From the IMG/VR virus record IMGVR_UViG_3300023440_000002, positions 1 through 64,000 of that record: 64,000 bases of DNA. One strand, written 5' to 3'. The DNA comes from a virus. Positions 118-23,373 of the stretch are shown in pieces (within the stretch, counting starts at the first letter, position 1; each line of letters opens with the position of its first letter). A program made the position numbers and the translations under genes. Below the pieces are notes generated by a model that was given only the letters and a program-made list of their open reading frames with translations, was not told the DNA's origin and searched no databases.

Positions 118-1131
118 ATGGGAATAGTAGCGACAGATATATTAATTAAGTCTATGTTAGAGGCGGCCATTGCCGATCTTAGATCTAATGAGTGGATACT
201 GGAAGATATTTTTTCTTCTCTAGCGGATGACCCAATATCCTCCCCTGAAAGCGGATGGAAAGAGGTTAGATCCGCTATAGATTGGTTTCAAAAAACAGAT
301 ATTCCTGTTCTTATGCAGCATCGGGTTGGCGATGCACCAAAAATACCCTGCATTTCTATAGCTTATCAGCCAAGTCGAGAGATGGAAGAAAGAGCTTCAT
401 TGGCTGATGATGGATTTGAGGAGGATTATTTACTCGATGGAAACTCAGGAACAGCCGCTGTCCAAAAAATCACCAACAATTTTACCCCAGATAAGTTCGA
501 CAGTTCGGACGGTTTGTTTATTTTACCTAAAGGGGTTGATACGAGTTCTATGGTTGTTGGTAATTTAATAGTAGCTAAGTCAGGTAAACATTATGATATT
601 ATCCAGATAGTCGGATCAGATCAGGTAAAACTAAAACCTGACATTAATGAAGATTTTACGGATTGTTATGTGGCACCGAAAAGTCGAATATGGAACGTAA
701 AAAGAGAGCAAACTTTTATTAGCGAGTCTTATCAGATTGGATGTCACACTCAAAACGACCCAGCAACCACATATTGGTTATGGCAAATAATCTTCTATTC
801 GTGTTTGAGATATAAAGAGGCTTTCCTGGAAGGTAGAGGTTTTGAATTATCTGGGTTGCAATCTTCCGCACTGGAAAGAAATCAAGAGTTTCAATCTGAG
901 AATGTATTTTCTAAATACGTAACAATTTCAGGTCAAACTTGCGGATCTTGGATAAAATACATAGCACCTAAACTGGAAGGTGTTAAGGTTTCCGTAGAGA
1001 TAGGCGACACTGACGGAGCTTTCGATACAACCATTTACGGAGAGGATGTTAAAAACTGCCCACCTACATGGTCTATGGTTGGCGACCTAGATGAAGATGA
1101 AGATCTAAGTGTTGATGAGGATGAATGTTAA
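118..1131 (+). CDS. putative neck/tail-completion protein
   Basis: 337-aa acidic ORF upstream of sheath and tube; positional inference. Confidence 0.5.
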   Translation: MGIVATDILIKSMLEAAIADLRSNEWILEDIFSSLADDPISSPESGWKEVRSAIDWFQKTDIPVLMQHRVGDAPKIPCISIAYQPSREMEERASLADDGFEEDYLLDGNSGTAAVQKITNNFTPDKFDSSDGLFILPKGVDTSSMVVGNLIVAKSGKHYDIIQIVGSDQVKLKPDINEDFTDCYVAPKSRIWNVKREQTFISESYQIGCHTQNDPATTYWLWQIIFYSCLRYKEAFLEGRGFELSGLQSSALERNQEFQSENVFSKYVTISGQTCGSWIKYIAPKLEGVKVSVEIGDTDGAFDTTIYGEDVKNCPPTWSMVGDLDEDEDLSVDEDEC

Positions 1132-1529
1132 TGAAAGTTTCTGTTATTGCAATCCATCACCCAGAATTTGATAATTTAATCCTTCACGGCAAAAGAAGAG
1201 ATAATAAAAAATGGACTATCCCTGGCGGAGGGGCGGACGGTGGAGAATCTGCGATTAAGTGCGCCAACAGGGAATTAATGGAAGAAACCGGACTTAAGAT
1301 ACCTAAATTGAAGTATTGGGGTAAAAAGATAATCAAAGGTAAGGATGAAGATATTGAAGTATCTTTATTTGTAGGGAAATGCCCAAAGAGTCTTAATCTT
1401 AAAATAGGTGAAGATCCGGACGAAGAGATGGTTCATTTTAAGTTTTTAGACCCTCTAGTTCATGGAAATTTACACGTACCGATGAATCGAAACATCTTAA
1501 AGGAATATTTGAGTGAAAAAGTTAAATAA
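1125..1529 (+). CDS. NUDIX hydrolase
   Basis: Nudix box GGADGGESAIKCANRELMEETGL; start may be 1131 (TAATG overlap). Confidence 0.9.
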   Translation: MLMKVSVIAIHHPEFDNLILHGKRRDNKKWTIPGGGADGGESAIKCANRELMEETGLKIPKLKYWGKKIIKGKDEDIEVSLFVGKCPKSLNLKIGEDPDEEMVHFKFLDPLVHGNLHVPMNRNILKEYLSEKVK

Positions 1530-4500
1530 ATCAAATAATTTCGAACCCCTACATCAAAAAATAAGAGGTATTGCGGACTCTTACGCTGAATCTAAAGGTT
1601 TAAAGCTAACCCACAAAGAGCCTATTATTCCTGTAGATAAAGGCCGTGGTAAAAAAATAGCCGACGCTTACGAGTCTATGAGTCACGAACCTAACAATCG
1701 CGACGTAAAAGAGTCGTACGACGCACTAAATAAAGAGACTGTAGATCAGTACAACCACATAAGAAACAGCGGGGTTGGTTTTTCTCCTATACCTGAAGGA
1801 AGCAGCAATCCATACTCTAATTCAAAAGACATGTTAAGTGATTTACATGAAAATAACCACTTATGGTATTATCCAACATCTTCTGGTTTTGGTAGTTCTG
1901 AGTCCGACAGTGACCACCCCTTACTTCAAAATGTAAAAACGGTTGATGGTGATATGAAAGCTAACGATGTTTTTAGGGCGGTTCATGATTTTTTCGGTCA
2001 CGGCAAAGAAGGTCACCATTTTGGACCTAGTGGGGAAGATGCGGCATGGAAAACACACACACAAATGTACTCACCTTTAGCGCAAAAAGCCTTGTCTTCA
2101 GAAACTAGAGGTCAGAACTCCTGGGTTAATTTTGGAGTGCACGGGGAAGAAAACAGATCTAACCCTAAAAATACAATATATGCAAAACAAAAGGCGGGTA
2201 TTATGCCGGAATGGACGAGAGATATAAGCAAAAAAGAAACCCTTAGGAAGTCATATCATCCGGCAGTTCACGGTGGGAGTCATTTTATATTCAGTACTGA
2301 AAACCCTAAAGTTAAGCCTAAGATCCAGATGACTCCAGAATCTGTAATATCTAAATTAAGAGCTAGTGGTGAAAAAGTAGAAGAAACTCATGGCAGGTAC
2401 GGTTCACCAGAAAAATCAATTATTGTTCATGATCCAAAAAATATAGATCAATTACACAACCTTGCGGCCAATCTAGGTCAAGAATCTGCGATAGTTTCTA
2501 ATGGTGGTGCCCATGAAATGCATTACTATGCAGGAATGCATGCCGGAAAAGTAAGACACGGACAAGGAACTCAAACTTTTGATCAAAAACCTGATGATTT
2601 ATATACGAAAGTTTCCCATCCCGACAACACCCACTCATACTTTCAACATAATTTTGACTGGGATGATAAAAATCTAAAATCAAAACTTGAAAAAAGTAAT
2701 ATATCTGAAGTGGTCGCGTCTGCTTTAGGTGATGTAAATAGAGAAAGGTCGAGCCTTAGAAAATACTACGGTTTGATGTATGGAGACAAAATAGAAAAAC
2801 ACCTAGAAATAAGAACAAAAGATAGAGTTTTTGTTTCTATGGATGGGGACAATATTGGAGCGTCAGTGGAAAGAGCTGCTATGGCTAACGACCTGCAAAC
2901 AATAATGCAGCAATCCAAGATTATCACTGAAGGCCAAAGGATGATACGGCAGTGGGCTAAAGCTCAAGATGCCGACATTTATATTGACGGCGGCGATGAC
3001 ATAGCTTTCACTTTACCTGCTGATGCCGTAGGTTCATTAAATGCTCTCCGTAAACTTTACGGCGAAAAAACTGGATATACCATCACTATTGGGGTCGGCG
3101 ACTCTATTTCGATGGCCGGACATGCTATGCTTTTCGGTAAACTTAGAGGTAAAAATCAAGTTAACCAGTGGAGCCCAGAAATAGACGAAGAATTAGAGAG
3201 GGTTAGTCGTACTTTATCACCTGAAGAAAAAATGCAAGATCATGGGTTGTTAGGTAAAATGGAAGACCTGGAAAAGGCTGTGGCTCCTCCGACCCGACCA
3301 GGTGAAATATCTCCTGATGGGCGGTATGTTAGTAAGCATCATAAAGGTGCTGGAGTTCAAGCTTGGCATTATAACCCTGAAATCTCGAATAGTTATGATA
3401 AGTTCATAGACGAGAATAAAGAGTCTTTTTTAGCTAAGCATCCGCCGGAACACCAAAAGATCGTAGGAGACCTTATAGATTCAGTGAGGGGCGACTTTAA
3501 TAGGCATTTTGTCATAGGGAAGGACCGAAGAGGGAGCACAGATAAGATCAGAGCTAGGCATATTAGAGGGTTAATGATGGGGAATGATAATTATTCATTA
3601 AACGTATCAAGCCCTACATCGTTAAATTTAACCGCCCACGTTCGTCATGGAAGTACACCTAAATCTTCAAGTTGGAATTTTTCTTCAAATAAAGCTCAAG
3701 TTCCTGGAGAAACTGCCGATAAAGGTGTTGTAACTTCTACTGGAGGCCATTATGTCAGCAAAAGTGATAAAGTTATTTCCGGTTCAATCAGCGGCAGGGG
3801 TAAATCCTTGGGATATGACCAGGGATCAATTTATGGAATATCTGAGCTGGTACGGTGTAGAAGATATTACGGAGTCTCAAGAGGAAGCTCAAGCCTTGCT
3901 AAATCATCACAAAATCTAAAATTAGAGCATTATAGTGTCCAACCGAATCTCGACAATATAGATCCTGACCATATGGGTGCGGGAGTTGGCTCTCGAGGCA
4001 GAGAATCTAAATACGGCACCCCAGAACCTAAATTCTCCTTCCATTACCGAGCAGGCACTACACCTGAAAATGTCGTAGTTTCCCAGTCAAAATCTAAATA
4101 TAATCTAGAGTTAGAGCCACATCATAGCATTTATGATATAGGTAAAGATCCTGATGGTATCTATAAAAAACTAAAAGAAGATTCGCAAGGCCGCCAGGTG
4201 AACCCTGGAATAGTTCGAATGGATGAATATCGCCAAGCTATTAAGGATGCTGGCCATTACGGTTTTTATAATTCCAACCATGACTCCCTATCTCACGCTG
4301 TAGCGTTATTCTATAAACACCCAGCAAAAGAAGATACTTCATTTCGCAAAGCCGAAGATCTATACGGCTTACGCAAAAACAGCGAAAGTGTCAAGAAACT
4401 CAAAGAGAAGTACCTTAAACCTGCGGGGTTGTCTTCCGAAGATAAAATCAAAAATATCAAACAATCCTACCTTGGGGTTCCAGAGACTACCAGGCAGAAT

Positions 4501-4899
4501 CACACTCGCCGTATATCTGAAATAAAACGCCAATTTAAAAATAGAAACGAAAACCCCCAAAATGACCCGCTAAAGGTTGGTGCAAAAATAGCAAGACAAA
4601 CAATGAAAAAAGCGAACCCAAAAACCTTAGATTATAGCGCCATAAATCAAATAAAACAAAAACCTTCAGCCCCTAAAACCTTAGACTACGGCAAGATGGC
4701 TCAAATAAAACAAAAACCTTCAGCCCCTAAAACCTTAGACTACGGTAACATGTCACAATCGATACCGACACCTAAAATAACCCCCCCGTCACCTAAAAGA
4801 CCTGAACTTACAACTCCGGTAAGTGATGAGCATAAACAAGCTAAGATGGCAAAATATCTTAGATCTAAACTAAAAAAACCTAATCTAAATTCAGACTAA
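1513..4899 (+). CDS. multidomain (polyvalent) protein, probably head-packaged: HDxxGH domain, SAM-lyase-like domain, mCpol-like domain, possible ART-like domain
   Basis: 1128 aa; LNKS/LRKS/LEKS/LEKA/LAKS/FRKA motifs between domains; motifs HDFFGH, GRYGSPEKS..GQES, MDGDNIG..GGDD. Confidence 0.65.
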   Translation: MKKLNKSNNFEPLHQKIRGIADSYAESKGLKLTHKEPIIPVDKGRGKKIADAYESMSHEPNNRDVKESYDALNKETVDQYNHIRNSGVGFSPIPEGSSNPYSNSKDMLSDLHENNHLWYYPTSSGFGSSESDSDHPLLQNVKTVDGDMKANDVFRAVHDFFGHGKEGHHFGPSGEDAAWKTHTQMYSPLAQKALSSETRGQNSWVNFGVHGEENRSNPKNTIYAKQKAGIMPEWTRDISKKETLRKSYHPAVHGGSHFIFSTENPKVKPKIQMTPESVISKLRASGEKVEETHGRYGSPEKSIIVHDPKNIDQLHNLAANLGQESAIVSNGGAHEMHYYAGMHAGKVRHGQGTQTFDQKPDDLYTKVSHPDNTHSYFQHNFDWDDKNLKSKLEKSNISEVVASALGDVNRERSSLRKYYGLMYGDKIEKHLEIRTKDRVFVSMDGDNIGASVERAAMANDLQTIMQQSKIITEGQRMIRQWAKAQDADIYIDGGDDIAFTLPADAVGSLNALRKLYGEKTGYTITIGVGDSISMAGHAMLFGKLRGKNQVNQWSPEIDEELERVSRTLSPEEKMQDHGLLGKMEDLEKAVAPPTRPGEISPDGRYVSKHHKGAGVQAWHYNPEISNSYDKFIDENKESFLAKHPPEHQKIVGDLIDSVRGDFNRHFVIGKDRRGSTDKIRARHIRGLMMGNDNYSLNVSSPTSLNLTAHVRHGSTPKSSSWNFSSNKAQVPGETADKGVVTSTGGHYVSKSDKVISGSISGRGKSLGYDQGSIYGISELVRCRRYYGVSRGSSSLAKSSQNLKLEHYSVQPNLDNIDPDHMGAGVGSRGRESKYGTPEPKFSFHYRAGTTPENVVVSQSKSKYNLELEPHHSIYDIGKDPDGIYKKLKEDSQGRQVNPGIVRMDEYRQAIKDAGHYGFYNSNHDSLSHAVALFYKHPAKEDTSFRKAEDLYGLRKNSESVKKLKEKYLKPAGLSSEDKIKNIKQSYLGVPETTRQNHTRRISEIKRQFKNRNENPQNDPLKVGAKIARQTMKKANPKTLDYSAINQIKQKPSAPKTLDYGKMAQIKQKPSAPKTLDYGNMSQSIPTPKITPPSPKRPELTTPVSDEHKQAKMAKYLRSKLKKPNLNSD
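4618..4745 (+). repeat. three-copy coding repeat (KQKPSA)PKTLDY
   Basis: aaaaccttaga(t/c)ta recurs three times, 57 bp apart. Confidence 0.85.
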
Positions 4900-4907
4900 A
4901 GTATTCC

Positions 4908-6002
4908 TTGGAGAGGAAAATGACAAAAATCAAAGATTTAATCAAAAACGAGTTGTGCGAAACTTTTAAACCTAGATTCCAAAGTCTTAATAAGGGGTTA
5001 GGGGTAGCACCGGCTGGTGGTGGAGATGGAATGGGGCCGCCTAAAGCAAAAATGCCTCCTATGATGCCAAAGCAAAAAAAACCAGCAAGTCAAACACCAC
5101 CTACCGCAGCACCGAAAGCTCCGAAGGCACCAACAGCTCCGAAAGCTCCTGGGGCTAGTATGCCAAAAGTAGCTGGAAAGCAAGTTGGGGGAGGGTTCAA
5201 TAAAGAAGAAAAAGGAACATCTCAAGCTAAATTCCACATACATCAAGATGGCCATAAAATAACTGACGAGTCGGAAACCTTAAGCGAAATACACAAAAAA
5301 CACGGTAAAGATATAGAATCTAAGGGTTTTGTTTTAGTTGAAGATAAAGTAAAGAAAAGTGAAATCATAAAATCTGAAGTTATGGGTGGATACCGGCCTG
5401 TATTTTTAGGTAACATTAAAGACTTAGCGAAAACCTCTCCACTTTTAGCTATAGCGTCCGTACCTTATGCATCATTAAGTAAGGCTGGCACCCAACATAT
5501 TATCGCGGGGGTTCACGTACCTAATGAGGTAGCACCTCCTCCAAAATCTAAGAAAGTTAAAGGAAATAAAGATCAAGGGTCAGGTGGGCAAATCACTCAC
5601 AAAGAAGAGATTCCTGCAAATAAGGTAATTAAGCCGGTTGATAGTTTAGAGAAAGACGTAGTTAGTATGACTACTGGTAAAAAGATCAATGCTACTAAAG
5701 AAAGAGTCGAAAACCAAGGAACTCCGGATATTGCAGCTGCTAGAAAAGAAAATATAAAAAGAATGAATAAACCTCCACTTCAAAACAAACAACCGGCTAA
5801 GAATAAAGACCAAGCTATAGCTGATGGTATGAGAGATCGCGAAGAAGAAAGGCGTGAGGGTGTCGCTATGGATGCGAAACATTCAAGTTCGGGCGTTTCT
5901 CATAAGACTTCTGAGAAGAATAAGGCCGACGAACGAAAAAGAAAAAATGCTGACATTATAAGGCGCATGAAGAGTGGCACTTTCAAAGGCCGCCGGTCGT
6001 AA
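4908..6002 (+). CDS. Lys/Pro-rich low-complexity protein, possible internal head protein
   Basis: 364 aa (ATG at 4920 also possible); LNKG, LAKT, LSKA, LEKD motifs; APKAP repeats. Confidence 0.5.
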   Translation: MERKMTKIKDLIKNELCETFKPRFQSLNKGLGVAPAGGGDGMGPPKAKMPPMMPKQKKPASQTPPTAAPKAPKAPTAPKAPGASMPKVAGKQVGGGFNKEEKGTSQAKFHIHQDGHKITDESETLSEIHKKHGKDIESKGFVLVEDKVKKSEIIKSEVMGGYRPVFLGNIKDLAKTSPLLAIASVPYASLSKAGTQHIIAGVHVPNEVAPPPKSKKVKGNKDQGSGGQITHKEEIPANKVIKPVDSLEKDVVSMTTGKKINATKERVENQGTPDIAAARKENIKRMNKPPLQNKQPAKNKDQAIADGMRDREEERREGVAMDAKHSSSGVSHKTSEKNKADERKRKNADIIRRMKSGTFKGRRS

Positions 6003-6012
6003 AACCTAATAT
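6002..6012 (+). promoter_or_regulatory. putative late-promoter motif AAACCTAATAT
   Basis: CCTAAT[AC]T-like copies also near 4876, 6332, 14684, 17218, 23416, 25036, 33551, 44364, 58684, each just upstream of a + strand gene. Confidence 0.6.
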
Positions 6013-6021
6013 ATTGTAAGG

Positions 6022-6339
6022 ATGGTTATGACTAAAAGTCGCAAAAAAAAGAAATCCGAAGATGTTAATAAAGGTGAGGTTACTGATATGGGTTTATCTA
6101 AAAAAGAAAGAGAAGGTCTGGAGATTGTTGGTGAATCCAAGAAAAAAACAGTCAACAAAAAACTTCCTTCTCGTGTTATGCCTCAATTAACATTTGATTC
6201 GTGGTGGATGCAAACCCAAAAAAGACACGGGTTTAAAAATGACATAAAAGAAGTTGTATTTAAGCATTTTAGAGCTAGAGGGTTTCTTGATAGTAAGAAG
6301 TTCGACGACGGCCTTAAAGATTTTGGTATCAAATCCTAA
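6022..6339 (+). CDS. hypothetical protein
   Basis: 105-aa ORF directly before the sheath gene. Confidence 0.7.
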   Translation: MVMTKSRKKKKSEDVNKGEVTDMGLSKKEREGLEIVGESKKKTVNKKLPSRVMPQLTFDSWWMQTQKRHGFKNDIKEVVFKHFRARGFLDSKKFDDGLKDFGIKS

Positions 6340-6365
6340 TATATTTAGGTAGGAGAATATAAACA

Positions 6366-9116
6366 ATGGCACAATCATACACAACAGACGACGGAATAAC
6401 CCTATACGAACCGGGAGCGGTAGTATCGCAAAAGGTAATCGCAGGGCAAGGCGGTATCGCTACCGCAGGTGTAGTTACTTTGATCGGAGAAGCTAACGAA
6501 GGACCTCATTGGTCTGAAGAGGCTGATCTAGACGATAACGTTTTCGGCCCAGATCAGATCGCTGAAGTAACAAGAAAATATGGTAGCGGGAGATTGGTTG
6601 ATGCCTTTAGAGCTGTTATTGCTGCGGCTAATGATCCAGCTATTGTTGGTGCCGTCTCTCTTATTAAGATTGTTAAAACTAACGACTCCGACGAAGCACA
6701 GGCTTTAGTTGAAAGTCAAGGGTTTGGAACTTACGCCACATTAACGGCTAGGCGAGCAGGATCTCCGGGTAATTTAATTAAACATAAGGTTGAAACATCT
6801 CAACCAGAAATAGCTCCTTCTACTGGTGTTATTGCATATACACCATCTAGCTCTTCTATTCCTTTTAAGATTAGAATGAACGGAAAAGACCAAAAAACAA
6901 TCACAGTCGTCGCTTTTACTGATGCGTCAGCTTTAGTTGCTTCAATTGAGGATATTGACAAAGGTATTTTAGCGAACGGAGGGGAAAGAGAAGACCCTCT
7001 AGCTACTCTTTCCGGCATATCTTTAACAGCCGCAGCGCCAGCAAGTGATGAACTAACTGTTACTTTAGCTACTGGTAGTATTTTCGCTCCAGTTCCTGAT
7101 GTTGGCGACACTGTAGTGATCCCTGATTCTGGACAATACGGGGCATCGGCCGCTTCTGCGATTGCGGGAACTGGTAGTGCTAACGTTGGTTCTTATATTG
7201 TTTCGTCTGTAGTGAATACGGCATCAAGTGCCACTTTATCACTAAAAGCTATTAATATTACCGGATCAGCTACTGTAGCTGCTTCAGGTGTTGTTTCAGC
7301 TGGAGAAGATGATATTGTTGTTTTCAAGCCAATAGAAATATCAAACAAAACAGGAGCCGATAGGAAAGTCGCTGACGGACTTACAGTTGACTGGGCTACA
7401 ACAACCAATGACGGAACTAATGCGGTACTAGAAATCACTTCAGGTGAAGATTGGGTTGCACAACCTCAAATAGGCGACACTCTTAAAGTAAGCACTACTT
7501 TTTCTGGATTAACTCCTGGCTTTTACTTTGTAGTGGCTTCAACATCAAAAACTGTATCGGTTGTTAGACTTTCGTCTGGAACCTCAGGATCTACAGCTAC
7601 AGAGACGTCGGTCGCTGCTGGTTTTGTAGTAGAAAAAGTTATTATTGATGGTTTCGGCAAATCGATGGAAATCGACGGAACGGTAAGTGAGATCTTTAAA
7701 ACGTCTGCGGGTGATGCCGTCACTTTTAGTGATTCTGTAATCTACTCTTCTGCCGAATATGAAACAACTACCACTATATCTAAAGGTAACACTGAAGACT
7801 CTTTCGATACTTCAGGGTCGATTGTTATTCATATAGGAACAACCAGAGCTTCAGCTAAGGTTGTTATTGACGACACTAAACTTTCATTCTGGGAAGGCGC
7901 TTCTGTTGCCTTTGAAGCTACTTTTGATCAGTTTAAGACAATGAAAGATCTATCTGACTTTATTAATTCTCAAACTGACTACTCTTCAAGTTTAGGTAGT
8001 GCTAGATTTTCATCTAAAAGTCCTACAGATTTAGACAGAGGTTCTTTTGATATTAGTTCTGTTGGTTGGAAAGTAGGAAGAATCAAAGCTGATGCTGTTG
8101 AGTGGGCTACAGAAGTTAGTCAATCTAGCTTAATTACGGTTCAACTTTCAGGTCAATCTGGATTACCAGAAGAAATCACACCAGAAAAATTCTTATCTGG
8201 CGGAAAAAGAAACGGAACAACCTCTTTGCAGGTAACTCAAGCATTTGATGTTATGGGCGCAGTAGAGACCAACTTTGTTAATACTCTTTTTTCTAAAGAT
8301 GCAAGTGATGATATTGTAGACGGTAAAACTGATTCTAGTTCGACCTACACAATCGACGCTATCAATGCACTAGAAAGAAATCACGTTCTAGCTATGAGTA
8401 AGCTTAAAGCTAAGAAAAACCGAATAGGTTTCGCTTCAAAGTCTGGCACTTTTACCGAACAAAAAGAAGCTGCCGGAGAAGTCGGTTCTTTCCGAATCGG
8501 ATTTGCTATTCAAGATTGTAAATTATCTAACTCTCAAGGTCAAATAGAAACGTACCAACCATGGATGAGCGGCGTTATCGCTTCCGGAATGCAAGCGGCG
8601 GCTGGATATAAAGGTATCGTTAAGAAGTTCGCTAACGTTAACGGTGTGGTTCATACTGACGGGTTTAACGCCAAGTCTAGTACTGACAGAGAGAGTGCAC
8701 TAAAGGCCGGTTTACTCATAATGGAACCGGTAAACACTGGAGGCTTTCGTTGGGTATCAGACCAAACAAGCTATGCGGTGGATAATAATTTTGTTTTCAA
8801 TAGCCTGCAAGCTGTTTATATTTCAGATTTGATGTCTCTAACTTTAATATCTTCCTTTGAAAGGGTTGTTGTAGGTAAGAGTGTTGCTGAAATATCGGCC
8901 GCAGCCGCATTAGGTTTCCTTGAGTCTGAGTTGTTTAACTTCAAAAGACTGAAATGGATAACAGCATCAGACGATGCCCCTAAAGGTTGGAAAAACGCCA
9001 GTATTAAAATACAAGGCGGAGTTATGAGAGTTTCTGTGGAAGTTAAGTTAGCTGGACTTATCTATTTCGTTCCAATCAATCTAGCTATCAGCGAAGTAAC
9101 TCAAGAAGCTGCTTAA
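6366..9116 (+). CDS. contractile tail sheath protein
   Basis: N-terminal YEPGAVV..LIGEANEGP and C-terminal sheath-like region ending VKLAGLIYFVPINL; AGGAG RBS; followed by tube-sized gene. Confidence 0.9.
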   Translation: MAQSYTTDDGITLYEPGAVVSQKVIAGQGGIATAGVVTLIGEANEGPHWSEEADLDDNVFGPDQIAEVTRKYGSGRLVDAFRAVIAAANDPAIVGAVSLIKIVKTNDSDEAQALVESQGFGTYATLTARRAGSPGNLIKHKVETSQPEIAPSTGVIAYTPSSSSIPFKIRMNGKDQKTITVVAFTDASALVASIEDIDKGILANGGEREDPLATLSGISLTAAAPASDELTVTLATGSIFAPVPDVGDTVVIPDSGQYGASAASAIAGTGSANVGSYIVSSVVNTASSATLSLKAINITGSATVAASGVVSAGEDDIVVFKPIEISNKTGADRKVADGLTVDWATTTNDGTNAVLEITSGEDWVAQPQIGDTLKVSTTFSGLTPGFYFVVASTSKTVSVVRLSSGTSGSTATETSVAAGFVVEKVIIDGFGKSMEIDGTVSEIFKTSAGDAVTFSDSVIYSSAEYETTTTISKGNTEDSFDTSGSIVIHIGTTRASAKVVIDDTKLSFWEGASVAFEATFDQFKTMKDLSDFINSQTDYSSSLGSARFSSKSPTDLDRGSFDISSVGWKVGRIKADAVEWATEVSQSSLITVQLSGQSGLPEEITPEKFLSGGKRNGTTSLQVTQAFDVMGAVETNFVNTLFSKDASDDIVDGKTDSSSTYTIDAINALERNHVLAMSKLKAKKNRIGFASKSGTFTEQKEAAGEVGSFRIGFAIQDCKLSNSQGQIETYQPWMSGVIASGMQAAAGYKGIVKKFANVNGVVHTDGFNAKSSTDRESALKAGLLIMEPVNTGGFRWVSDQTSYAVDNNFVFNSLQAVYISDLMSLTLISSFERVVVGKSVAEISAAAALGFLESELFNFKRLKWITASDDAPKGWKNASIKIQGGVMRVSVEVKLAGLIYFVPINLAISEVTQEAA

Positions 9117-9132
9117 ATAGGAAGACAAGTAA

Positions 9133-9606
9133 ATGGGAAAAGCAAAAATATTAACAGGTGCCAGAGCCAAAGTTTCAATTAACGGTAATACTGTAGGATT
9201 GTTTGCGAACTGCTCCTGGTCTATCAGACAAGATAAAGCTCCGGCGTACATTCTAGGCAGATATAATCCTGCCGAGATCACACCGACGTCTCAAGAGCCA
9301 GTCTCTTTAAGCTTAACCGGTTATCGAGTTGTTGATGCCGGACCTTACGCTGTAGCTAACGCTACATTACTAAGAGGGCTTCTCGAAGAGGAAGATTTTG
9401 ATGTAACTGTTTCTGACAGGCAAAGCGGTAAGATTATTTTCACTGCGGTTGGTTGTAGAGTTGGTGGTTGGTCATCGGGTGTCGCAGCTAGAGGTGTTAG
9501 TGATATTAGAATCGATATTACTGGTATTAGAGGTGAAGATGAGTACGGAATAGCGCAAGGCGGTGACGACGACATCGGCGGATCTAACTTGGACGACGGA
9601 TCATAA
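9133..9606 (+). CDS. tail tube protein
   Basis: 157 aa right after sheath; ILTGARAKV..ILGRYNPAEI pattern. Confidence 0.85.
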   Translation: MGKAKILTGARAKVSINGNTVGLFANCSWSIRQDKAPAYILGRYNPAEITPTSQEPVSLSLTGYRVVDAGPYAVANATLLRGLLEEEDFDVTVSDRQSGKIIFTAVGCRVGGWSSGVAARGVSDIRIDITGIRGEDEYGIAQGGDDDIGGSNLDDGS

Positions 9607-9657: not shown

Positions 9658-9750
9658 GTCTTCCGTGCTATAATAGTTATAGGTGGAAGTTAATAATAAC
9701 CTTGAAGGTGTGCCTCACTTTCGTTTTTTTGTTTAATTTGGAGTTGTATT

Positions 9751-11685
9751 TTGTTGTTAAAAAAAGAAGAGCTTATGAAGGATTTTAAGGGTTGGAATTA
9801 TGATGGATGGTCAAACATGGCAAAGGTTGTCTATAAAAGGACATACGCAAGAAAAAAAGAAAAAGGTTCAGATATTTTAGAAGACTGGCCGGACACTTCT
9901 TATAGATCTATTATGGGATCTATCAAGCTGGTCGATAAGAAATTTATTAAGGATGATGAGCAAAAAAAATTATTTAAGTATTACATGGAAAGAAAAGCCA
10001 CCTCAGCCGGTAGGGGGTTGTGGATCGGAGGTACCGATTTTGTTGATAAGGTTGGAGGTGCCGCGTTAAATAATTGCTGGTTTTTAACGGCATCTAATTG
10101 GAATAATTATGTCATATCTCAAGATCTTCTTATGCTAGGAGGAGGTGTAGGTATGAGCGTAGAACATAGATTTGTGTCTAAGCTACCTCCCGTAATAGAC
10201 TCTGATATAGCAATTGAACATAAAGCTACAAATGACGCTGATTTTATTGTCCCTGATTCGAGGGAAGGGTGGTGCAAACTCACTTATAAGGTTTTAGAGT
10301 CTTTTTTCGAAACAGGGGAGAGTTTTACTTTTTCTACAGTGTGTTTGAGAGGTGCAGGGGAGGCAATCTCGGGCTTCGGAGGTACAGCTTCTGGTCCTTT
10401 GCCTTTGGTAAACTTCATAAAAGAATTAACATCTATTTTAACCTCAAGAAAAGGCAAGCATATACGACCTATTGACGCTGCCGATATTTTATGTTCAATT
10501 GCCAATATGGTTGTTGCAGGGAACGTTCGAAGGTCAGCTTTGATGATACTAGGAGACCCTTGGGATAAAGAGTTCCTTACGATTAAGCGTTGGGATATCG
10601 AAGGAAACAGAATACCTTCATATCGATACAGAGCTAATTTTAGCGTCATAGCTGACGACTACTCAGACCTTCACCCTTTGTTTTGGGATTCTTATAATGT
10701 AGGAGAACCTATAGGTATCTTTAACAGGAAAAATGCTCAAAAATATGGAAGGATGGGTGAAGAAAAGCCAGATAGTTGCATTGGTGTCAACCCTTGTGCA
10801 GAGGCTACATTGGAGGAGGGGGAACCTTGTAATCTTTATGAGATTTACCTATCTAGAGTTAAATCAGAACAAGAGTTGGTCGATATTTGTCGATTAGTCA
10901 CTAGAGCTGCAATAAGAACAACCTGCGCTTTTTATCACCATGAAGTAACTCAAAAAGTGATTTCTAAGAATAGGCGTATCGGGATAGGGCTTACAGGTAT
11001 CTTAAATGCCAAACTTTACACTAAAGCGTCATTAGATCTAGCGTACTCTACAGTAAAAAAAGAGGCAGAAATGTATTGCGCTGAGATGGGCATACCTAAT
11101 TGCGTCAGATTAACAGTAATAAAGCCGTCAGGAACTTTAGGTAAATTAGGTGATTGTTTGGAGGGTTGCCATCCCGCCTATAGTCGATACATGATCCAAA
11201 GGATAAGGTTTTCGTCTGATGATGGTTTACTACCCGAACTTAAAGCGGCGGGTCATTATATGGAAATGGAAAAAAACCAGGATGGATCACCTAAACCCGA
11301 ATCTACAGTGGTTGATTTTTATTTAGATAATGGCGAAAATACGCCATGTGCTGATACGGGCTTTAATACAACTAAACAGTTAGATACACTATTGGATCTT
11401 CAAAAGCACTGGGCTGACCAGGCCGTTTCGATAACTGTTTATTATGAAAAAGAAAAGTTAGATGTAATAAAAAAATGGATCAAAGATAACCTAAAAAATA
11501 TAAAATCTATATCGTTTTTGCTGCATCAAGGTCACGGTTTTATTCAAGCACCAAAAGAACCTATAACGAAAGAGAGGTATCAGGAGTTGACACAGCCGGT
11601 AAAGTCGATTAATGTAAGTAATGTAAAAGAGTCATCTGAGCTAGATTCTAGTGACTGTGAAGGCGGAGCTTGTCCTGTAAGGTAG
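9751..11685 (+). CDS. nrdJ: class II (adenosylcobalamin) ribonucleotide reductase
   Basis: NNCW, GGGVG, VVAGNVRRSA, NPCAE, IKPSGT and C-terminal CEGGACPVR; extended -10 TGcTATAAT near 9666; start may be ATG 9775. Confidence 0.93.
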   Translation: MLLKKEELMKDFKGWNYDGWSNMAKVVYKRTYARKKEKGSDILEDWPDTSYRSIMGSIKLVDKKFIKDDEQKKLFKYYMERKATSAGRGLWIGGTDFVDKVGGAALNNCWFLTASNWNNYVISQDLLMLGGGVGMSVEHRFVSKLPPVIDSDIAIEHKATNDADFIVPDSREGWCKLTYKVLESFFETGESFTFSTVCLRGAGEAISGFGGTASGPLPLVNFIKELTSILTSRKGKHIRPIDAADILCSIANMVVAGNVRRSALMILGDPWDKEFLTIKRWDIEGNRIPSYRYRANFSVIADDYSDLHPLFWDSYNVGEPIGIFNRKNAQKYGRMGEEKPDSCIGVNPCAEATLEEGEPCNLYEIYLSRVKSEQELVDICRLVTRAAIRTTCAFYHHEVTQKVISKNRRIGIGLTGILNAKLYTKASLDLAYSTVKKEAEMYCAEMGIPNCVRLTVIKPSGTLGKLGDCLEGCHPAYSRYMIQRIRFSSDDGLLPELKAAGHYMEMEKNQDGSPKPESTVVDFYLDNGENTPCADTGFNTTKQLDTLLDLQKHWADQAVSITVYYEKEKLDVIKKWIKDNLKNIKSISFLLHQGHGFIQAPKEPITKERYQELTQPVKSINVSNVKESSELDSSDCEGGACPVR

Positions 11686-11707
11686 TTTTTTATGATCCGT
11701 CTTCTGT

Positions 11708-12085
11708 TTAATTACCCCTGTGCTTGTATTTGTATTTTTTAATAAGAGTTCTCTTTTTCATCTCCCGTAACAGCTCAGGCCAGTTGCGGGAGTTTTCTTT
11801 TGTGGAGTACATTAAAGGTCTCATTATTGATGTTTTGTTTGCGTGTTTTAAGTTTAATGTGCAATGTCCTAGTTCATGATAGATAAGCTCTTTTTGGTGT
11901 CTGAGGGGTATCGAGGTGAAGTGATTGATATTGATAGTTATGTGGTTTGTGTTTAGATTACAGCTGGCGCTGCGGTTTTGGGTGGTTTTTTCTGTGGAAT
12001 ATGTGGTGTAAACCTTAACGTTAAAGTCTTTTTCGAACTGTAATGTAATGGCACTCGCAAGTGCCATTACAGCTAAGAATGTCAA
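11708..12085 (-). CDS. secreted zincin/matrixin-like metallopeptidase
   Basis: Signal-like N-terminus; HELGHCTLNLKH plus SIM Met-turn. Confidence 0.75.
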   Translation of the reverse strand: MTFLAVMALASAITLQFEKDFNVKVYTTYSTEKTTQNRSASCNLNTNHITININHFTSIPLRHQKELIYHELGHCTLNLKHANKTSIMRPLMYSTKENSRNWPELLREMKKRTLIKKYKYKHRGN

Positions 12086-12468
12086 AGGATTTCAGCCTCT
12101 AACGCCTTAATATAGAAGTTGATTTCGTCATCAAATGCGTAACCCAGAGGCATATTAACCCTCTTTTCTGCTATTTCTCTTTTTCCCTTGATAGCACTTT
12201 TAACTAAGAACGACTGGTCTTTTTTGATTTTCGTTTCTTTCATCCAATCTAATTTTTCATACATTTGACGGGTTGCTTCTACTCTAACATCTCTTATGTC
12301 TTGCAGATCCCCTTCAGGTATTTCGTGTTTTTTCACTTCCCCTCCACGGGTATTTCCACAGTTCAAACCTAATAGATAGAAATCAGATGACTTTTTTTCT
12401 CTAAACCATTTGATGCATTTTTTGTTTACCCAGACACCCCAAAAAACTTGCATATTACCACCCCTCAC
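12082..12468 (-). CDS. hypothetical protein
   Basis: 128-aa ORF overlapping its neighbours in a tight operon. Confidence 0.6.
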   Translation of the reverse strand: MRGGNMQVFWGVWVNKKCIKWFREKKSSDFYLLGLNCGNTRGGEVKKHEIPEGDLQDIRDVRVEATRQMYEKLDWMKETKIKKDQSFLVKSAIKGKREIAEKRVNMPLGYAFDDEINFYIKALEAEIL

Positions 12469-12910
12469 TTAGGTCGAGTTCTTCTTCGACAGGGTCTTCT
12501 TTAGGTTCATCTTCCTTCTCAATGACCTTATCGGAAGGTTCCTCGTAAATCTTTAGGTTTTTTAATACATTGCCGGATTTAAGGATCTCGCAAGACTGTA
12601 AGAAAGAAATAAAGACGACATTAATAAGGCCTGCATTGTCATCTTTTTGTTGTAGTTCTAATAGAGGATCATCATAAAAAGAGTGAAATATATCCCACAG
12701 TGTTATCATTTTACCGGAAGAGCAAACACCTCCACCTTTGCCTTTTGTGGTTTTAATGACCCCCCTGCTATTTAGCTTCCTAACCACCCTCTGAAGGCTG
12801 TGATCTTGTATTTCCAGCTTAATACACAACTCTCCTACCGTAGACGGTTTTTCGGTTAATAGGTTGACGAGATTGATAGCTGTGTCGATATCTTTATTGA
12901 ACTTAATCAT
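12455..12910 (-). CDS. Rrf2-family winged-helix regulator
   Basis: LQRVVRKLNSRGVIKTTKGKGGG..ITLWDIF. Confidence 0.8.
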   Translation of the reverse strand: MIKFNKDIDTAINLVNLLTEKPSTVGELCIKLEIQDHSLQRVVRKLNSRGVIKTTKGKGGGVCSSGKMITLWDIFHSFYDDPLLELQQKDDNAGLINVVFISFLQSCEILKSGNVLKNLKIYEEPSDKVIEKEDEPKEDPVEEELDLSEGW

Positions 12911-13821
12911 TGGTTATGGCCCTCTAAGGTGTGCTTGATTAGTGCTTTCGAGGCGACAGGCCATCGACTCTCGATCATTTTAAGTATAGGTTGAGCTATA
13001 AGTTGAACCTCTAATTGAGCATGCGAGTCAAGCCTCAACCCTAAAAAGTGAATCCAGTTTCTTAGGTTTCCCGTCATCCAGAATTCAGTCATAGCATTTT
13101 GCGGCAAAACACCTCTAGCTATCTCTCTTGCTTCGCCGCCATCTATCTTTTTGTTGTAAAGTTCCATAGCGGCACTGTGAAATACTTCAAGGTCTTTATT
13201 AGATCTCTCGATTTCGGATTCGCTCATATCTCCGTCAGAACACTGTTTGCTATTTTTGTGTTGCTTTCTGGCTTTCGGTAAGTAAAACTCAATATTTTCA
13301 GATGTATATCTTCGTGATATTTCATTGTAAGAGAAGGTCCTGTGTCGGTGTATTTGGCTTCTTATGTACATAGGACATTTGATTTTCACACTTAAAGAGC
13401 AGTGCTCGAAAGGGGTTAGGTGTTTATTTTTAGCTAGATAGTTGATCAACTTAATGTCCGAATCTTTCAGTGTTTCTATTGTTTTTCCGAAAGAAACTCT
13501 GGCCGCATTCACTACCGTTACGTCGCTGCCCATACTATCAATAAAAGTCGCCGTTATTTCAGTCATTTTTTTCCCAAATAAAATGTTGTATTTTTTACTT
13601 AACCTAGAACCTTCCATTTTTAATCTAACCCTCTCTACTATGTAGTCGGGCTCCGCATTGAACTCGTTGTTCCACGAACTGAGGGTGCCACTTGAATCAC
13701 CCCTGGTTTCACTTATGAATCCGTAATTTCTCAGTATTTGACTGAACCTTTGATTTGGCCGCTCCGCCACCAAAAAACCTAGCATTTTAACTAACTCATC
13801 ATTAGCTTCTTCTCTGTTCAT
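12907..13821 (-). CDS. thyX: flavin-dependent thymidylate synthase with N-terminal extension
   Basis: RHRTFSYNEISRRY motif, NAARVSF, HAQLEV; core probably starts at ATG 13566. Confidence 0.92.
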   Translation of the reverse strand: MNREEANDELVKMLGFLVAERPNQRFSQILRNYGFISETRGDSSGTLSSWNNEFNAEPDYIVERVRLKMEGSRLSKKYNILFGKKMTEITATFIDSMGSDVTVVNAARVSFGKTIETLKDSDIKLINYLAKNKHLTPFEHCSLSVKIKCPMYIRSQIHRHRTFSYNEISRRYTSENIEFYLPKARKQHKNSKQCSDGDMSESEIERSNKDLEVFHSAAMELYNKKIDGGEAREIARGVLPQNAMTEFWMTGNLRNWIHFLGLRLDSHAQLEVQLIAQPILKMIESRWPVASKALIKHTLEGHNQ

Positions 13822-14153
13822 GCTTCACCTTTTGGGTTACTTAACAGGTCTATTTCTTTGTTGTTCTTTTCTATCATTTTATTGAAATTCTCAACAAAAT
13901 CATTAAACACGACCTTAACAATAGAATTGATAGGCATATTATTTTCTTCTGAAGTTTGTTTGCAAAAATCAAACAGCTGCTCGGCAGCCATGTAAGAGAT
14001 GTCGTCCGAGTTAGAACTAACTGAGACGAAACATCTTTCTCTTTCTTTGTCTAATATTGCTAAGGCTATATGGTTGCCTTTTTCTTTACATAAAGCCACT
14101 AAAAGGCTGACTGCCTCTTTGAGTTGTGGCTGGTCGATCAGATCTTCTTTCAT
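13818..14153 (-). CDS. hypothetical protein
   Basis: 111-aa ORF with ATGA overlap to the next gene. Confidence 0.65.
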   Translation of the reverse strand: MKEDLIDQPQLKEAVSLLVALCKEKGNHIALAILDKERERCFVSVSSNSDDISYMAAEQLFDFCKQTSEENNMPINSIVKVVFNDFVENFNKMIEKNNKEIDLLSNPKGEA

Positions 14154-19870: not shown

Positions 19871-20316
19871 TGGAAGATGATCAATTCAAAGATCTAGTAA
19901 TAAGAAAGCTAGAAAAAATAGAAGAAAAGCAAGAAACTCGACATGATAAACTACACACTATGATCCACGACGTACGCGACGAGCAAATGAAAAACTCTAT
20001 GGTTTTATCTCAAATGAAGTTAGATATCCCGGAAATCAAAAAAGACCTTTTTGAGCATAAGGAAGGCGTTATTCAAAACCGAACTCGCATTAAAGAACTG
20101 GAAGAGGCAACTAGGGATCAAGAATCGGCAATTAATGAATCTGTTCAAATCTACAAAGACCAGGTTTCTCCGGTGATTAAGCACGTAGAAAACATGCAAG
20201 CTATGCCTGAAAAGATTCGAAGTTTTATAATCAAAACATCTAAGGTTATGGGCGCGATCGCTCTCATTTTGGCCTCAACTGGTTCGATTTTAGCTTACTT
20301 TATGAAATGGTTTTAA
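19870..20316 (+). CDS. coiled-coil protein with C-terminal TM helix (possible holin-like)
   Basis: Heptad-rich body and hydrophobic C-terminus; last gene of block. Confidence 0.5.
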   Translation: MEDDQFKDLVIRKLEKIEEKQETRHDKLHTMIHDVRDEQMKNSMVLSQMKLDIPEIKKDLFEHKEGVIQNRTRIKELEEATRDQESAINESVQIYKDQVSPVIKHVENMQAMPEKIRSFIIKTSKVMGAIALILASTGSILAYFMKWF

Positions 20317-21043
20317 ATAAAACCTCTACCTTGTTTGTTCCATCACCATTCTTAGTTATTTCAAATGCTTGAGGTTTATTGACTGGTTTGTAGTTCTGAT
20401 TCATAATCGAACTATTGAAGAATGTCGTTTGGCCTTTTATTACGTGTCCATTTTCTTCGTGGATATGTCCAAACATGTGAACTGCCGGCTTAACAATACC
20501 AACCCTTTCCATTAATTCAACACATCCCGTATATCTGTTAATTTTCCTAACGGTACCGCTATGTGTAAACTTCTCTTCAGGAACTGCATCGAGTATCCTG
20601 CGAGGAGGTCCGTGCGTGACGAGTATATCAAGCTTGTCAGGCATCTTAGACCATATTTCGGATGCTTCCTCACCTCTACGGTACATGAAGTGCCAGCGGC
20701 TGAATTTGGGCGTCATAGGTGACCCCCAAATAGTAAACCCGTCAATCTCAATACTTTCATTGAGAAGAAGGTGAACATTAGAGTTACAAGTCCGGCGGAA
20801 ATCTTCTACGTTTTCCTCATCAGTGAAAGTTTTGTCGTGGTTACCGACAGTAAAAACGACATGCTTAAATATTCCGCATTCAACTAGCTCATTACAGTGA
20901 CTGATAAAATCCATGGCTTGATTGTAAGTGCCAGCGGGCGACATATCACCTGAATGAAACATCACATCAAACCCTTGTTCGACTGTCGGATATTTTAAAT
21001 TATAATGACATCCGTGAGTGTCACTGTAATGAGCACATTTCAT
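20300..21043 (-). CDS. calcineurin-like metallophosphoesterase
   Basis: SDTH, GD, GNHD, THGPP, FGHIHE motifs. Confidence 0.92.
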   Translation of the reverse strand: MKCAHYSDTHGCHYNLKYPTVEQGFDVMFHSGDMSPAGTYNQAMDFISHCNELVECGIFKHVVFTVGNHDKTFTDEENVEDFRRTCNSNVHLLLNESIEIDGFTIWGSPMTPKFSRWHFMYRRGEEASEIWSKMPDKLDILVTHGPPRRILDAVPEEKFTHSGTVRKINRYTGCVELMERVGIVKPAVHMFGHIHEENGHVIKGQTTFFNSSIMNQNYKPVNKPQAFEITKNGDGTNKVEVLFKTIS

Positions 21044-21738: not shown

Positions 21739-22228
21739 TATGACATCTCGTGTTGCTTGATGTCAAGTTAAAAGTACTAACATTACCAGAAAACAGTTCT
21801 TTTCGGTATTTTTCTTTGTCTCTTTTGTAATAGAGGGTGATCATTGATGGGTTCATTAAGCTAGATGGTATTTCACCTTGCTTTACTTCTACGTGATTCC
21901 TAAATAAAATGCAATGACCTAGTTCGTGTAACATCAACACTTCTTTACTGTCTTCAGTGGAATTAAACCAATATTCCTTATCTATAACAATAACAGGTCT
22001 TTTTTCGGCGGCATAAGTGCAGCGTCCCACCTCTGGCAACTCCAAAACTCCAAACTTAACTTCCAATGATGTTATTTTTTGCTTATTGCTTTCCGGCGAT
22101 ATTGCTTCGAATAGGTTGATGTACTTATAGAATTCGGAAGTTTCTAATTCTATACCTTTAGATCCTGTAGTACCTGACGGCTCTACACCGCAACTAATCA
22201 ATAGTAACAATAATAATGACTTAATCAT
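21722..22228 (-). CDS. lipoprotein zincin/matrixin-like metallopeptidase
   Basis: LLISC lipobox; HELGHCILFRNH; SLM Met-turn. Confidence 0.8.
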   Translation of the reverse strand: MIKSLLLLLLISCGVEPSGTTGSKGIELETSEFYKYINLFEAISPESNKQKITSLEVKFGVLELPEVGRCTYAAEKRPVIVIDKEYWFNSTEDSKEVLMLHELGHCILFRNHVEVKQGEIPSSLMNPSMITLYYKRDKEKYRKELFSGNVSTFNLTSSNTRCHSDHGG

Positions 22229-22467
22229 AGCCCTACAACCCTAGCTGAATTATGGTTAGATGTCATGTTTTGGAACTCTTTAATTTTACCTTTAATTGAT
22301 AAAATTAATCTCATTTGATCGTCGGTTAACGCCTTAACAGGTTTACCTCTTTGTGCTGCGTCGTCTGAACTCAAAATAACATTACCTGTTTGGATAAAAT
22401 TAACCCTCATTTGAAGAGCCACTATGATGCCGCCAATGTCTTCTTTGGTTAAGTTAATTTCTACCAC
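22225..22467 (-). CDS. hypothetical protein
   Basis: 80-aa ORF with GAGG RBS. Confidence 0.6.
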   Translation of the reverse strand: MVEINLTKEDIGGIIVALQMRVNFIQTGNVILSSDDAAQRGKPVKALTDDQMRLILSIKGKIKEFQNMTSNHNSARVVGL

Positions 22468-22641
22468 GTCACACCTCTTTGTTGTGATTAATCATAGATA
22501 TAGCTAATTGAGAGCAAGTCTCAACTCCGTAGAACTGAAATAAGTCTTGTATGAATCCAGGGTTGGTTTTATTTTCGTAAGTGATTACTTTCACCAGCGC
22601 GTCCGGGCATCCACCTGAAAGCTCAATCATCTTTTCTTCAG

Positions 22642-23346
22642 TCATTTCGATTTCTTTCTTTTTCTGTTAGGTGAACCTTTTGGTGTTTTGAAGCTGTAGC
22701 TGTCGAAACCTTTCTTGAATAACATATCTTCGTCTGAAATACCAACGATATCTATTTCGGTGTTACCTAGAACCCCAGACATATACATATAAACACCCTG
22801 AAATGCTGAATAGGTGTTTTTGATTTTTTGGAAACCGCACTGGTCGAGATTATCGTTAATATTTAGTGTTAGTTTATTGTGTTGTGCTTTTCTTATAGTA
22901 AAGATCGGAGTTTTATGTTTACGAAAAAGGCCATCCAGGTAGCTCAGATCCATACTAAAAAAAGAATTAATATATCTTCCAGTTGCGTTACGGCTATTTA
23001 TGCCCATCCATCTCCGTTTATTGGTTTTTGCGACCACTTTGCCTATTTTTTTTAGGTGGTCAATATACTCATCAGCTTTGTAGAAAAAATACTTACTAGT
23101 CTTATCTTTAAAGATAACCAGAGGGTATATTTTGCCGCAAAAACCAACCACCATAAACTCTATGGTGATATCGCCTTCAGCTTCCGAAACATCTACGTTG
23201 TTTTTTACGTGAGAGATCCCATAACTAACACTGTCATATTTAAGCTCGACTTCAGATTTCACCCTATGGTAGACGCAAGTTTTATCGACGCCGTAAGCTG
23301 CGCCGGAATCATAGTAATCTCTGAATTTACTGTCAATAAGCAACAT
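22642..23346 (-). CDS. hypothetical phage protein
   Basis: 234 aa; FRDYYD N-terminus and KGFDSYSFK C-terminus; GAGG RBS and upstream sigma-28 site. Confidence 0.75.
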   Translation of the reverse strand: MLLIDSKFRDYYDSGAAYGVDKTCVYHRVKSEVELKYDSVSYGISHVKNNVDVSEAEGDITIEFMVVGFCGKIYPLVIFKDKTSKYFFYKADEYIDHLKKIGKVVAKTNKRRWMGINSRNATGRYINSFFSMDLSYLDGLFRKHKTPIFTIRKAQHNKLTLNINDNLDQCGFQKIKNTYSAFQGVYMYMSGVLGNTEIDIVGISDEDMLFKKGFDSYSFKTPKGSPNRKRKKSK

Positions 23347-23373
23347 ATACCTCTTGCGTTAGTGTCATATAAC

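Follow-up and report, generated by a model that had tools for sequence, protein, structure and literature searches.

An intact mCpol palm domain carried as an internal cassette of a polyvalent protein in the neck and tail operon of an uncultured relative of Myxococcus phage Mx1

The stretch of DNA considered here (the window) comprises positions 1 to 64,000 of the IMG/VR virus record IMGVR_UViG_3300023440_000002, a linear genome fragment of 108,381 bp with a CheckV completeness of 68%. Near the start of the window, among genes for neck and tail proteins, lies a long gene of the polyvalent type whose interior encodes a domain of the mCpol (minimal CRISPR polymerase) family. So far, experimental work has shown mCpol only as the synthase of the Panoptes guard systems of bacteria, and its occurrence in a phage protein is the subject of this report. 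The central features are given below, with residues numbered along the 1128-aa protein.

1513-4899, plus strand: polyvalent-type open reading frame (ORF; P0001), 1128 aa, GTG start, holding the mCpol domain
2803-3279, plus strand: whole mCpol cassette, residues 431-589, made up of the domain and a conserved C-terminal tail (TPEEK...HGLL)
2821-3177, plus strand: mCpol palm domain, residues 437-555, with evidence from Pfam, NCBIfam, fold and residue conservation
2842-2844, 2848-2850 and 2989-3000, plus strand: mCpol catalytic codons, for D444, D446 and GGDD, respectively

A sequence-only reading of the window had drawn attention to a 115-aa segment at 2821-3171 and assigned it to mCpol or the Cas10 palm rather than to GGDEF. 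The quoted peptide is real and stop-free in frame 1, where it forms residues 437-553 of the ORF, with DGDNIG at 444-449, GGDD at 493-496, TIGVG at 525-529 and GKLRGKNQ at 542-549. Its sequence had been described correctly; rather than being a separate product of 115 aa, the segment is an internal part of the 1128-aa ORF. The segment is a complete mCpol palm domain, matching Pfam PF18182 (mCpol) with an E value of 1.4e-13 and 51.6 bits (cut-off 26.4) from position 1 to position 112 of the 114 in the profile. When the genome was searched in all six frames, the same site came back (2830-3165, 56.5 bits). The profile comparison that the sequence-only reading had proposed as a check was thus won by mCpol: the Cas10 palm2 profile (PF22335) gave a sub-threshold match only, and GGDEF (PF00990) matched neither the protein nor the genome at E<=1. 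Profile searches of the 108-kb genome fragment found no second mCpol and no GGDEF elsewhere.

The predicted structure points the same way. An AlphaFold2 model of residues 430-560, built from a 26-sequence alignment, reached a predicted local distance difference test score (pLDDT) of 95.8, and the best Foldseek matches were the Panoptes OptS/mCpol structures 9mnr, 9pd0 and 9nwn (E about 1e-8, template modelling score 0.79-0.87, root-mean-square deviation (rmsd) about 1.8 Å), with GTP cyclohydrolase III, GGDEF and Cas10 at E values of about 1e-5. Alignment with VIA-align to 9pd0, 9mnr and 9nwn gave Z scores of 17.1-17.8 over 118-119 of about 120 residues (rmsd 1.8-2.1), against 13.9 or less for every GGDEF, Cas10, class III cyclase and Y-family polymerase. 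A better match to an unrelated fold would have spoken against the mCpol assignment; OptS stood at the top of the structure search instead, with GGDEF about 4 Z units lower, and the preference for mCpol over GGDEF therefore holds by profile and by structure.

The active site is intact in this copy and is maintained across the phage-type domains, as assessed on 159 domains that occur in 156 cluster representatives (clustering at 50% identity or less). Among these, D446 and K543 are conserved in 100%, D495 and K547 in 98%, D/E496 in 95%, D444 in 91%, and G493 and G494 in 92-97%. In a phmmer alignment to KpOptS, D444 corresponds to Asp6 and D495 to Asp57, both of which are catalytic in KpOptS (PMC12657218). 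This conservation suggests that the mCpol cassette is catalytically competent. It also bears on an alternative in which the palm is a non-catalytic remnant with a purely structural or assembly role. A precedent for such a remnant is found in Mx1 (OR576727.2), where a 468-aa neck-module protein (21964-23370) has been retained with an mCpol-derived head domain that lacks DGD, GGDD and the conserved lysines, in short all catalytic motifs. The present protein, by contrast, retains the metal-binding aspartates, the GGD[D/E] hairpin and the two lysines, as do 90-100% of the 159 domains, and we consider a remnant very improbable here.

The cassette may act as a pair. A two-copy complex prediction of residues 425-590 with ATP scored 0.77, whereas the best of 3 controls scored 0.03. 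Of 30 proteins with solved structures as one-chain pairs, 20 attained this score, as did 1 of 23 with solved structures as single chains; these counts are approximate for this run, which included a custom alignment and a ligand. The prediction runs agreed in at least 48% of contacts, the partner pLDDT was at least 82, and the predicted interface contains the GGDD hairpin (residues 490-495) from both copies. The model is consistent with a symmetric head-to-head mCpol dimer; the score may reflect likeness to OptS, because OptS oligomers have already been solved. Three representatives (P0094, P0101 and P0121) carry tandem mCpol domains, and these pairs recall the paired palms of Cas10.

Comparison with the known Panoptes synthases (KpOptS and VnOptS of type I, and the cA3-making type II) places the phage domain in one family with them and gives it their minimal palm fold of about 115 residues, with the catalytic Asp pair aligned and, in the predicted phage dimer, the two hairpins joined. 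The differences are equally clear. OptS is a free protein of about 120 aa in a bacterial defence island, whereas the phage mCpol is an internal cassette of an 1128-aa protein and is only 19-20% identical to it; the canonical GGDD/GGDE, almost gone from Kp and Vn OptS, is preserved in the phage clade; and the phage partner is a NUDIX hydrolase, with no 2TM-beta (OptE) or CARF-TM effector gene recognised alongside. The two-gene operon of Panoptes is absent, the neighbours being a neck protein, the NUDIX hydrolase, a Pro/Lys-rich ORF and the tail sheath, and the record is a virus contig and not a bacterial chromosomal locus, where Panoptes resides, in many cases next to CBASS. The locus is not a Panoptes system. 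With Cas10 and the GGDEF cyclases the phage domain has the palm fold and the GGD[D/E] hairpin chemistry in common, but it lacks the HD domain, the zinc finger and the second palm domain of Cas10.

The kinship with OptS raises the question of whether the phage enzyme could refill the decoy of a host Panoptes system, that is, make the nucleotide that keeps the guard's membrane effector repressed (2',3'-c-di-AMP, 3',2'-cGAMP or cA3) despite phage sponges or esterases. This would be a special case of the broader reading that we favour below. Family and fold are those of OptS, and S468, at a position that 86% of the phage domains fill with Ser, matches S30 of the c-di-AMP-making KpOptS, a residue that shifts product choice (PMC12657218). 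The authors of the Panoptes work expect a phage counter-measure (PMC12657218), and we found no such counter-measure described in the literature searched. On the other side, no Panoptes locus can be linked to a host of this phage, the 108-kb fragment has no recognised sponge or Acb1-like esterase, and the identity to OptS is low. Since the canonical GGDD/GGDE kept here is nearly lost in Kp and Vn OptS, the same product cannot be assumed. Decoy refilling is an unlikely purpose for this particular cassette.

The domain belongs to a sizeable group. An exhaustive search of representatives clustered at 50% identity returned 757 sequences at E<=1e-3 and 26 at E<=1e-30, and the best 150 of the 757 are multi-module proteins or proteins headed N-terminally by mCpol. 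In the closest relatives, mCpol is internal to proteins of 160-2933 aa; the next 89 scanned are mostly mCpol-headed proteins of 400-600 aa, in which the only other Pfam families were DUF5661, NUDIX, DUF3293, the Ddi2 HDD domain and a PI3K-like kinase. No CARF domain or membrane effector occurred in the mCpol relatives scanned. Among 50,697 phage records, tblastn with the mCpol segment found nothing at E<=0.01, and isolated phages thus appear to be without close copies. Scanning IMG/VR with the single sequence also returned nothing, and scanning it with the clade alignment recovered 6 viral loci. Two signature peptide patterns of the clade were looked for in 185,579 bacterial and archaeal species, each represented by one genome, and were absent. 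In the literature searched, we found neither a phage-encoded mCpol described nor an mCpol tied to polyvalent proteins.

The protein that carries the cassette is itself a mosaic. Module borders were set by BLAST against a set of relatives, with breakpoints at about 243, 385-428, 580-588, about 795-802 and 944-956, and 75 metagenomic relatives contain the modules of the ORF in shuffled orders. Besides the mCpol cassette, the ORF consists of the following parts.

1513-2241, plus strand: module A, residues 1-243, matching phrog_3170 (E 1e-19), with the motif HDFFGHGKEG..FGPxGE
2254-2667, plus strand: module B, residues about 248-385, with a predicted T3 SAM-lyase-like fold (SAM, S-adenosylmethionine)
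3280-4341, plus strand: modules D (residues 590-794) and E (799-943), split by LAKS at 795-798
4342-4896, plus strand: FRKA junction (944-947) and basic low-complexity module F, always C-terminal in relatives

Module A, whose sequence is well conserved, may be an uncharacterised enzyme. By tblastn it is 34-43% identical to cyanophage proteins, one of which is annotated as a 'large polyvalent protein' (2772 aa, Pag-Yong1), and it has about 200 matches in mycobacteriophages; there was no Pfam match and no sequence match in the PDB, and the protein atlas returned unnamed viral clusters only. For module B, the AlphaFold2 model of residues 236-430 (pLDDT 84.4) aligned by VIA-align to the T3 SAM lyases 7ock_K and 8bb1_E with Z scores of 10.5 and 10.3 (120-121 residues, rmsd 3.6), the next unrelated entry having a Z of 6.2, and the Foldseek E value was 4e-3. 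The T3 SAM lyase profile PF23780 had no match in this protein; relatives reached a sub-threshold 19-24 bits against a cut-off of 28, and a similarly sub-threshold match lies in the Mx1 protein directly upstream of the Mx1 sheath. The model thus suggests a T3-SAM-lyase-like fold for this module. Modules D, E and F received no assignment; module E is common to about 19 relatives. Its assignment to ART-PolyVal, which came as a lead from the protein atlas (score 0.92; the family is present in 12-24% of cluster members), was set aside, as hhalign gave no significant alignment between module E and the ART region of Mx1 (probability 0.25%, E 0.24). Module F contains a 54-bp tandem repeat (4617-4751; 2.5 copies, 85% matches) that encodes repeated KPSAPKTLDY units, and its constant C-terminal place in relatives (P0004-P0006) suggests a possible role in packaging or anchoring.

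The modules swapped into relatives include GNAT, NUDIX, DUF5661, SAM-lyase-like, L5 gp82, PcfJ and Zeta toxin, as well as a poly(A)-polymerase-type nucleotidyltransferase. Disparate domains in one polypeptide, the accretion and shuffling of modules among relatives, and a late or structural gene context are the marks of polyvalent proteins, and the ORF, placed in a neck-sheath-tube region that is syntenic with Mx1, fits that definition (Iyer et al., 2017; PMC5512222). The proteins described there are likewise large late-operon products with unrelated, shuffling enzyme modules. That paper does not name mCpol, the SAM-lyase-like module or this NUDIX type ('mCpol' occurs zero times in it and 'Nudix' once), and the processing it describes is mainly by internal zincin-like peptidase domains, whereas the present protein has a short x-K-S/A motif and no peptidase module.

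Polyvalent proteins with GGDEF and RelA/SpoT modules are among those described, and interference with host nucleotide signals was proposed for them (Iyer et al., 2017; PMC5512222). By extension, the mCpol product could be a second messenger of the housekeeping type, or a mimic of one, that alters the envelope, motility, osmotic or receptor state of the host and so controls host physiology or superinfection; in a variant, the nucleotide would set off host effectors against rival phages. Mx1 encodes a GGDEF 'nucleotide cyclase' (5174-5905) in its head module, immediately after the prohead-protease gene, so that cyclases of at least two families are in use in this phage group. Against this, mCpol has so far been found only in immune contexts, and the companions of the cassette (SAM-lyase-like, NUDIX and GNAT) look more like counter-defence. 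We regard control of host physiology or of superinfection as improbable.

A companion of mCpol is encoded just upstream.

1125-1529, plus strand: NUDIX hydrolase, 134 aa, PF00293 (E 9.7e-13), with an intact NUDIX box at residue 35

NCBIfam models of this gene are generic and match far below threshold, the nearest being RNA 5'-pyrophosphohydrolases. The last 17 nt of the gene overlap the GTG start of the polyvalent ORF, which is preceded by AGGA 8 nt upstream. We weighed a frameshift fusion of the two and discarded the idea, since a +1 shift would be required and the start codon has its own AGGA and comes directly after an in-frame TGA. The sequence-only reading had raised the possibility that this neighbour is linked to mCpol, and the relatives bear this out. 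NUDIX homologues (31-45% identity, one at 29%) share a polypeptide with mCpol in 13 representatives, on either side of it and directly beside it in at least four (P0084, P0105, P0096 and P0098). Fusion occurs in 10 of the 32 closest mCpol relatives compared with 1 of 63 related polyvalent proteins without mCpol, a contrast whose significance (Fisher 5e-5) is overstated because the sequences are related. Because of these recurrent fusions, we take the NUDIX-mCpol linkage to be real. In one relative (P0012) NUDIX and module A are fused exactly, and the junction, SLSKS, corresponds to the KLNKS with which the present ORF starts. On an IMG/VR viral contig (L005, 4705-11413), the modules are spread over three consecutive genes: a NUDIX-headed protein of 940 aa with a ParB-C-like part, directly followed by a SAM-lyase-like and mCpol protein of 310 aa, and then a 963-aa protein bearing DUF6321. 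This splitting indicates that cassettes shift between fused and separate states.

The wider gene neighbourhood is that of a phage tail module, and the earlier description of the domain as phage-encoded agrees with it: the contig is an IMG/VR virus, and its tail sheath is 38% identical to that of Mx1.

118-9606, plus strand: late operon, comprising a neck-region protein of 337 aa, the NUDIX hydrolase, the polyvalent ORF, ORFs of 364 aa and 105 aa, the sheath and the tube
6366-9116, plus strand: tail sheath, by homology to Mx1
9133-9606, plus strand: tail tube, by homology to the Mx1 tube-position gene

The sheath protein (916 aa) aligns with its Mx1 counterpart over the full length, the next ORF corresponds to the gene in the tube position of Mx1, and the ORF of 337 aa (118-1131) to an Mx1 gene (36563-37561) two places upstream of the Mx1 sheath. 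All ORFs from 118 to 9606 are on the plus strand, with ends that overlap or are closely spaced, and a terminator-like hairpin (9703-9723) lies 3' of the tube gene. From this same-strand close packing and the hairpin it follows that the mCpol ORF is a late-operon gene of the neck and tail module. The likeness to Mx1 extends beyond the syntenic neck, sheath and tube: there, too, a SAM-lyase-like module stands immediately upstream of the sheath gene, an mCpol-derived domain heads one protein, NUDIX occurs within a polyvalent protein, and the same junction motif is found. The module arrangement differs, and the mCpol-like domain is degenerate in Mx1 but intact here. Homologues of the Mx1 capsid protein and 'prohead protease' were not recognisable in the 108-kb contig, which, together with the completeness of 68%, suggests that the head module is located in the uncovered part of the genome.

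The module borders of the ORF are punctuated by a short motif, [LIFM]-x-K-[SA], which occurs seven times (at 4, 244, 392, 586, 795, 944 and 1031) against 2.75 expected from shuffled sequences (P 0.03). Five of the seven (244, 392, 586, 795 and 944) fall at breakpoints that had been set independently by homology. The sites flanking the mCpol cassette are as follows.

2686-2697, plus strand: junction site LEKS, residues 392-395
2791-2802, plus strand: degenerate junction motif IEKH, residues 427-430
Residues 586-589, plus strand: junction site LEKA

Within the close clade, counted with a wider pattern that allowed V in the first position and G in the last, 26 of 31 proteins have the motif 10-24 residues ahead of DGD (9% expected) and 14 of 26 have it 128-150 residues beyond DGD (14% expected), and several relatives terminate just past the conserved GLL tail. 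The same motif occurs in Mx1 in the major capsid protein (residue 12, ...LRKA|MEAGN), in a near-identical context in the 'prohead protease' protein (...FAKA|MEAGN), five times in a 290-aa protein that is adjacent to the capsid protein and holds the scaffold position, and between the GNAT, ART and NUDIX domains of a 1479-aa polyvalent protein. The pattern suggests a cleavage site of a head-maturation protease.

If the motif were instead a linker feature, the polyvalent protein could remain uncut and serve as a late cytoplasmic enzyme, for example against late-firing abortive systems. Packaging and cleavage are in fact entirely inferred; no protease could be assigned in the fragment, and its trypsin-like peptidase gene is distant from the structural genes. 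The occurrence of the motif at the N-terminal end of the capsid protein of Mx1 and within the scaffold-like protein, its coincidence with module borders and swaps, and the place of the gene within a neck and tail operon nevertheless argue against a linker, and an uncut late enzyme seems to us rather unlikely. Two ORFs were examined as head protease and neither was assigned, as neither lies within a head module. One is a ClpP-like ORF (55573-56115, minus strand; PF00574, 25.2 bits) amid small early-type genes. The other is the stand-alone trypsin-like peptidase (genome positions 92197-92943, minus strand; PF13365, 61.7 bits), which adjoins a deoxynucleoside monophosphate kinase gene; a Lys-cleaving protease would fit the x-K|S/A motif, and this gene lies outside any head module. 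Between the polyvalent gene and the sheath, the Pro/Ala/Lys-rich ORF of 364 aa (4908-6002), which has no family match, contains several x-K-S/A motifs and 9/18-bp repeats (5108-5149).

The position of the cassette in a polyvalent protein of a neck and tail late operon makes action as virion cargo or as a late enzyme likely. The reading that we favour, and consider moderately probable, is that of a late-made, probably packaged, protease-released and dimerising mCpol cassette, a piece of counter-defence cargo whose cyclic di- or oligonucleotide product would tamper with host nucleotide signalling. The polyvalent protein would be produced late, alongside the neck and tail proteins, and incorporated into the particle, where a head-maturation protease would cleave it at [L/I/F]-x-K-[S/A] motifs. 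A cassette of about 160 residues would thereby be freed, function as a head-to-head dimer, and either be delivered with the DNA or be active inside the infected cell. There it could convert nucleoside triphosphates to a cyclic di- or oligonucleotide that disturbs nucleotide-based immunity or signalling of the host, with the co-travelling NUDIX hydrolase working alongside and the SAM-lyase-like module as fellow cargo.

Several observations weigh against this reading. The NCBIfam mCpol model NF033576 scored 38.4 bits, slightly below its cut-off of 40, and the site directly before mCpol is degenerate (IEKH), the well-formed LEKS lying 35 residues upstream. The P values for the motif overstate the number of independent events because the sequences are related. 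The degenerate Mx1 domain indicates that a non-catalytic role of the fold exists in this phage group. The contig, 68% complete, has no recognisable capsid, portal or head-protease genes. Finally, no sponge, 2H/Acb1-like esterase, CARF or SAVED was present among the Pfam families listed in summary for the ORFs of this incomplete genome, and with no sensor, effector, sponge or esterase recognised, nothing points to a specific target.

Taken as a whole, the interpretation first offered from the sequence is partly supported. The purposes that it proposed for the phage nucleotide (a sponge-sensing effector kept off, jamming of CBASS or type III sensors, and control over host cyclic dinucleotides) are conjecture, and the computation does not distinguish among them. 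A bolder version of the favoured reading would have a whole Mx1-like phage clade deliver, from the virion, a protease-released mCpol 'writer' together with NUDIX, refilling or counterfeiting the decoys of guards such as Panoptes. We hold it to be doubtful; if true, it would represent the predicted 'anti-anti-anti-defence' and the first virus to turn the host's own family of immune-signal synthases against the host.

What can be stated more generally is that mCpol with a conserved active site is a recurrent cassette in late-operon, probable cargo proteins across an uncultured phage group. If the cassette is active and delivered, phages would also write immune nucleotides, beyond erasing them by sponges and esterases, which would add a new layer to the arms race. 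The motif-punctuated architecture and the NUDIX partnership could together provide a general rule by which packaged effector cassettes might be recognised in this group.

The region 9751-14153, which separates the tail tube gene from further structural genes, contains a ribonucleotide reductase (9751-11685; phrog_367, E 2.5e-131) and, on the minus strand, ThyX (12907-13821). The genome also has three calcineurin-like phosphoesterase (Metallophos) genes, one of them at 20300-21043 on the minus strand; one of the three is probably half of an SbcCD-like pair, and nucleotides are one possible substrate of the others.

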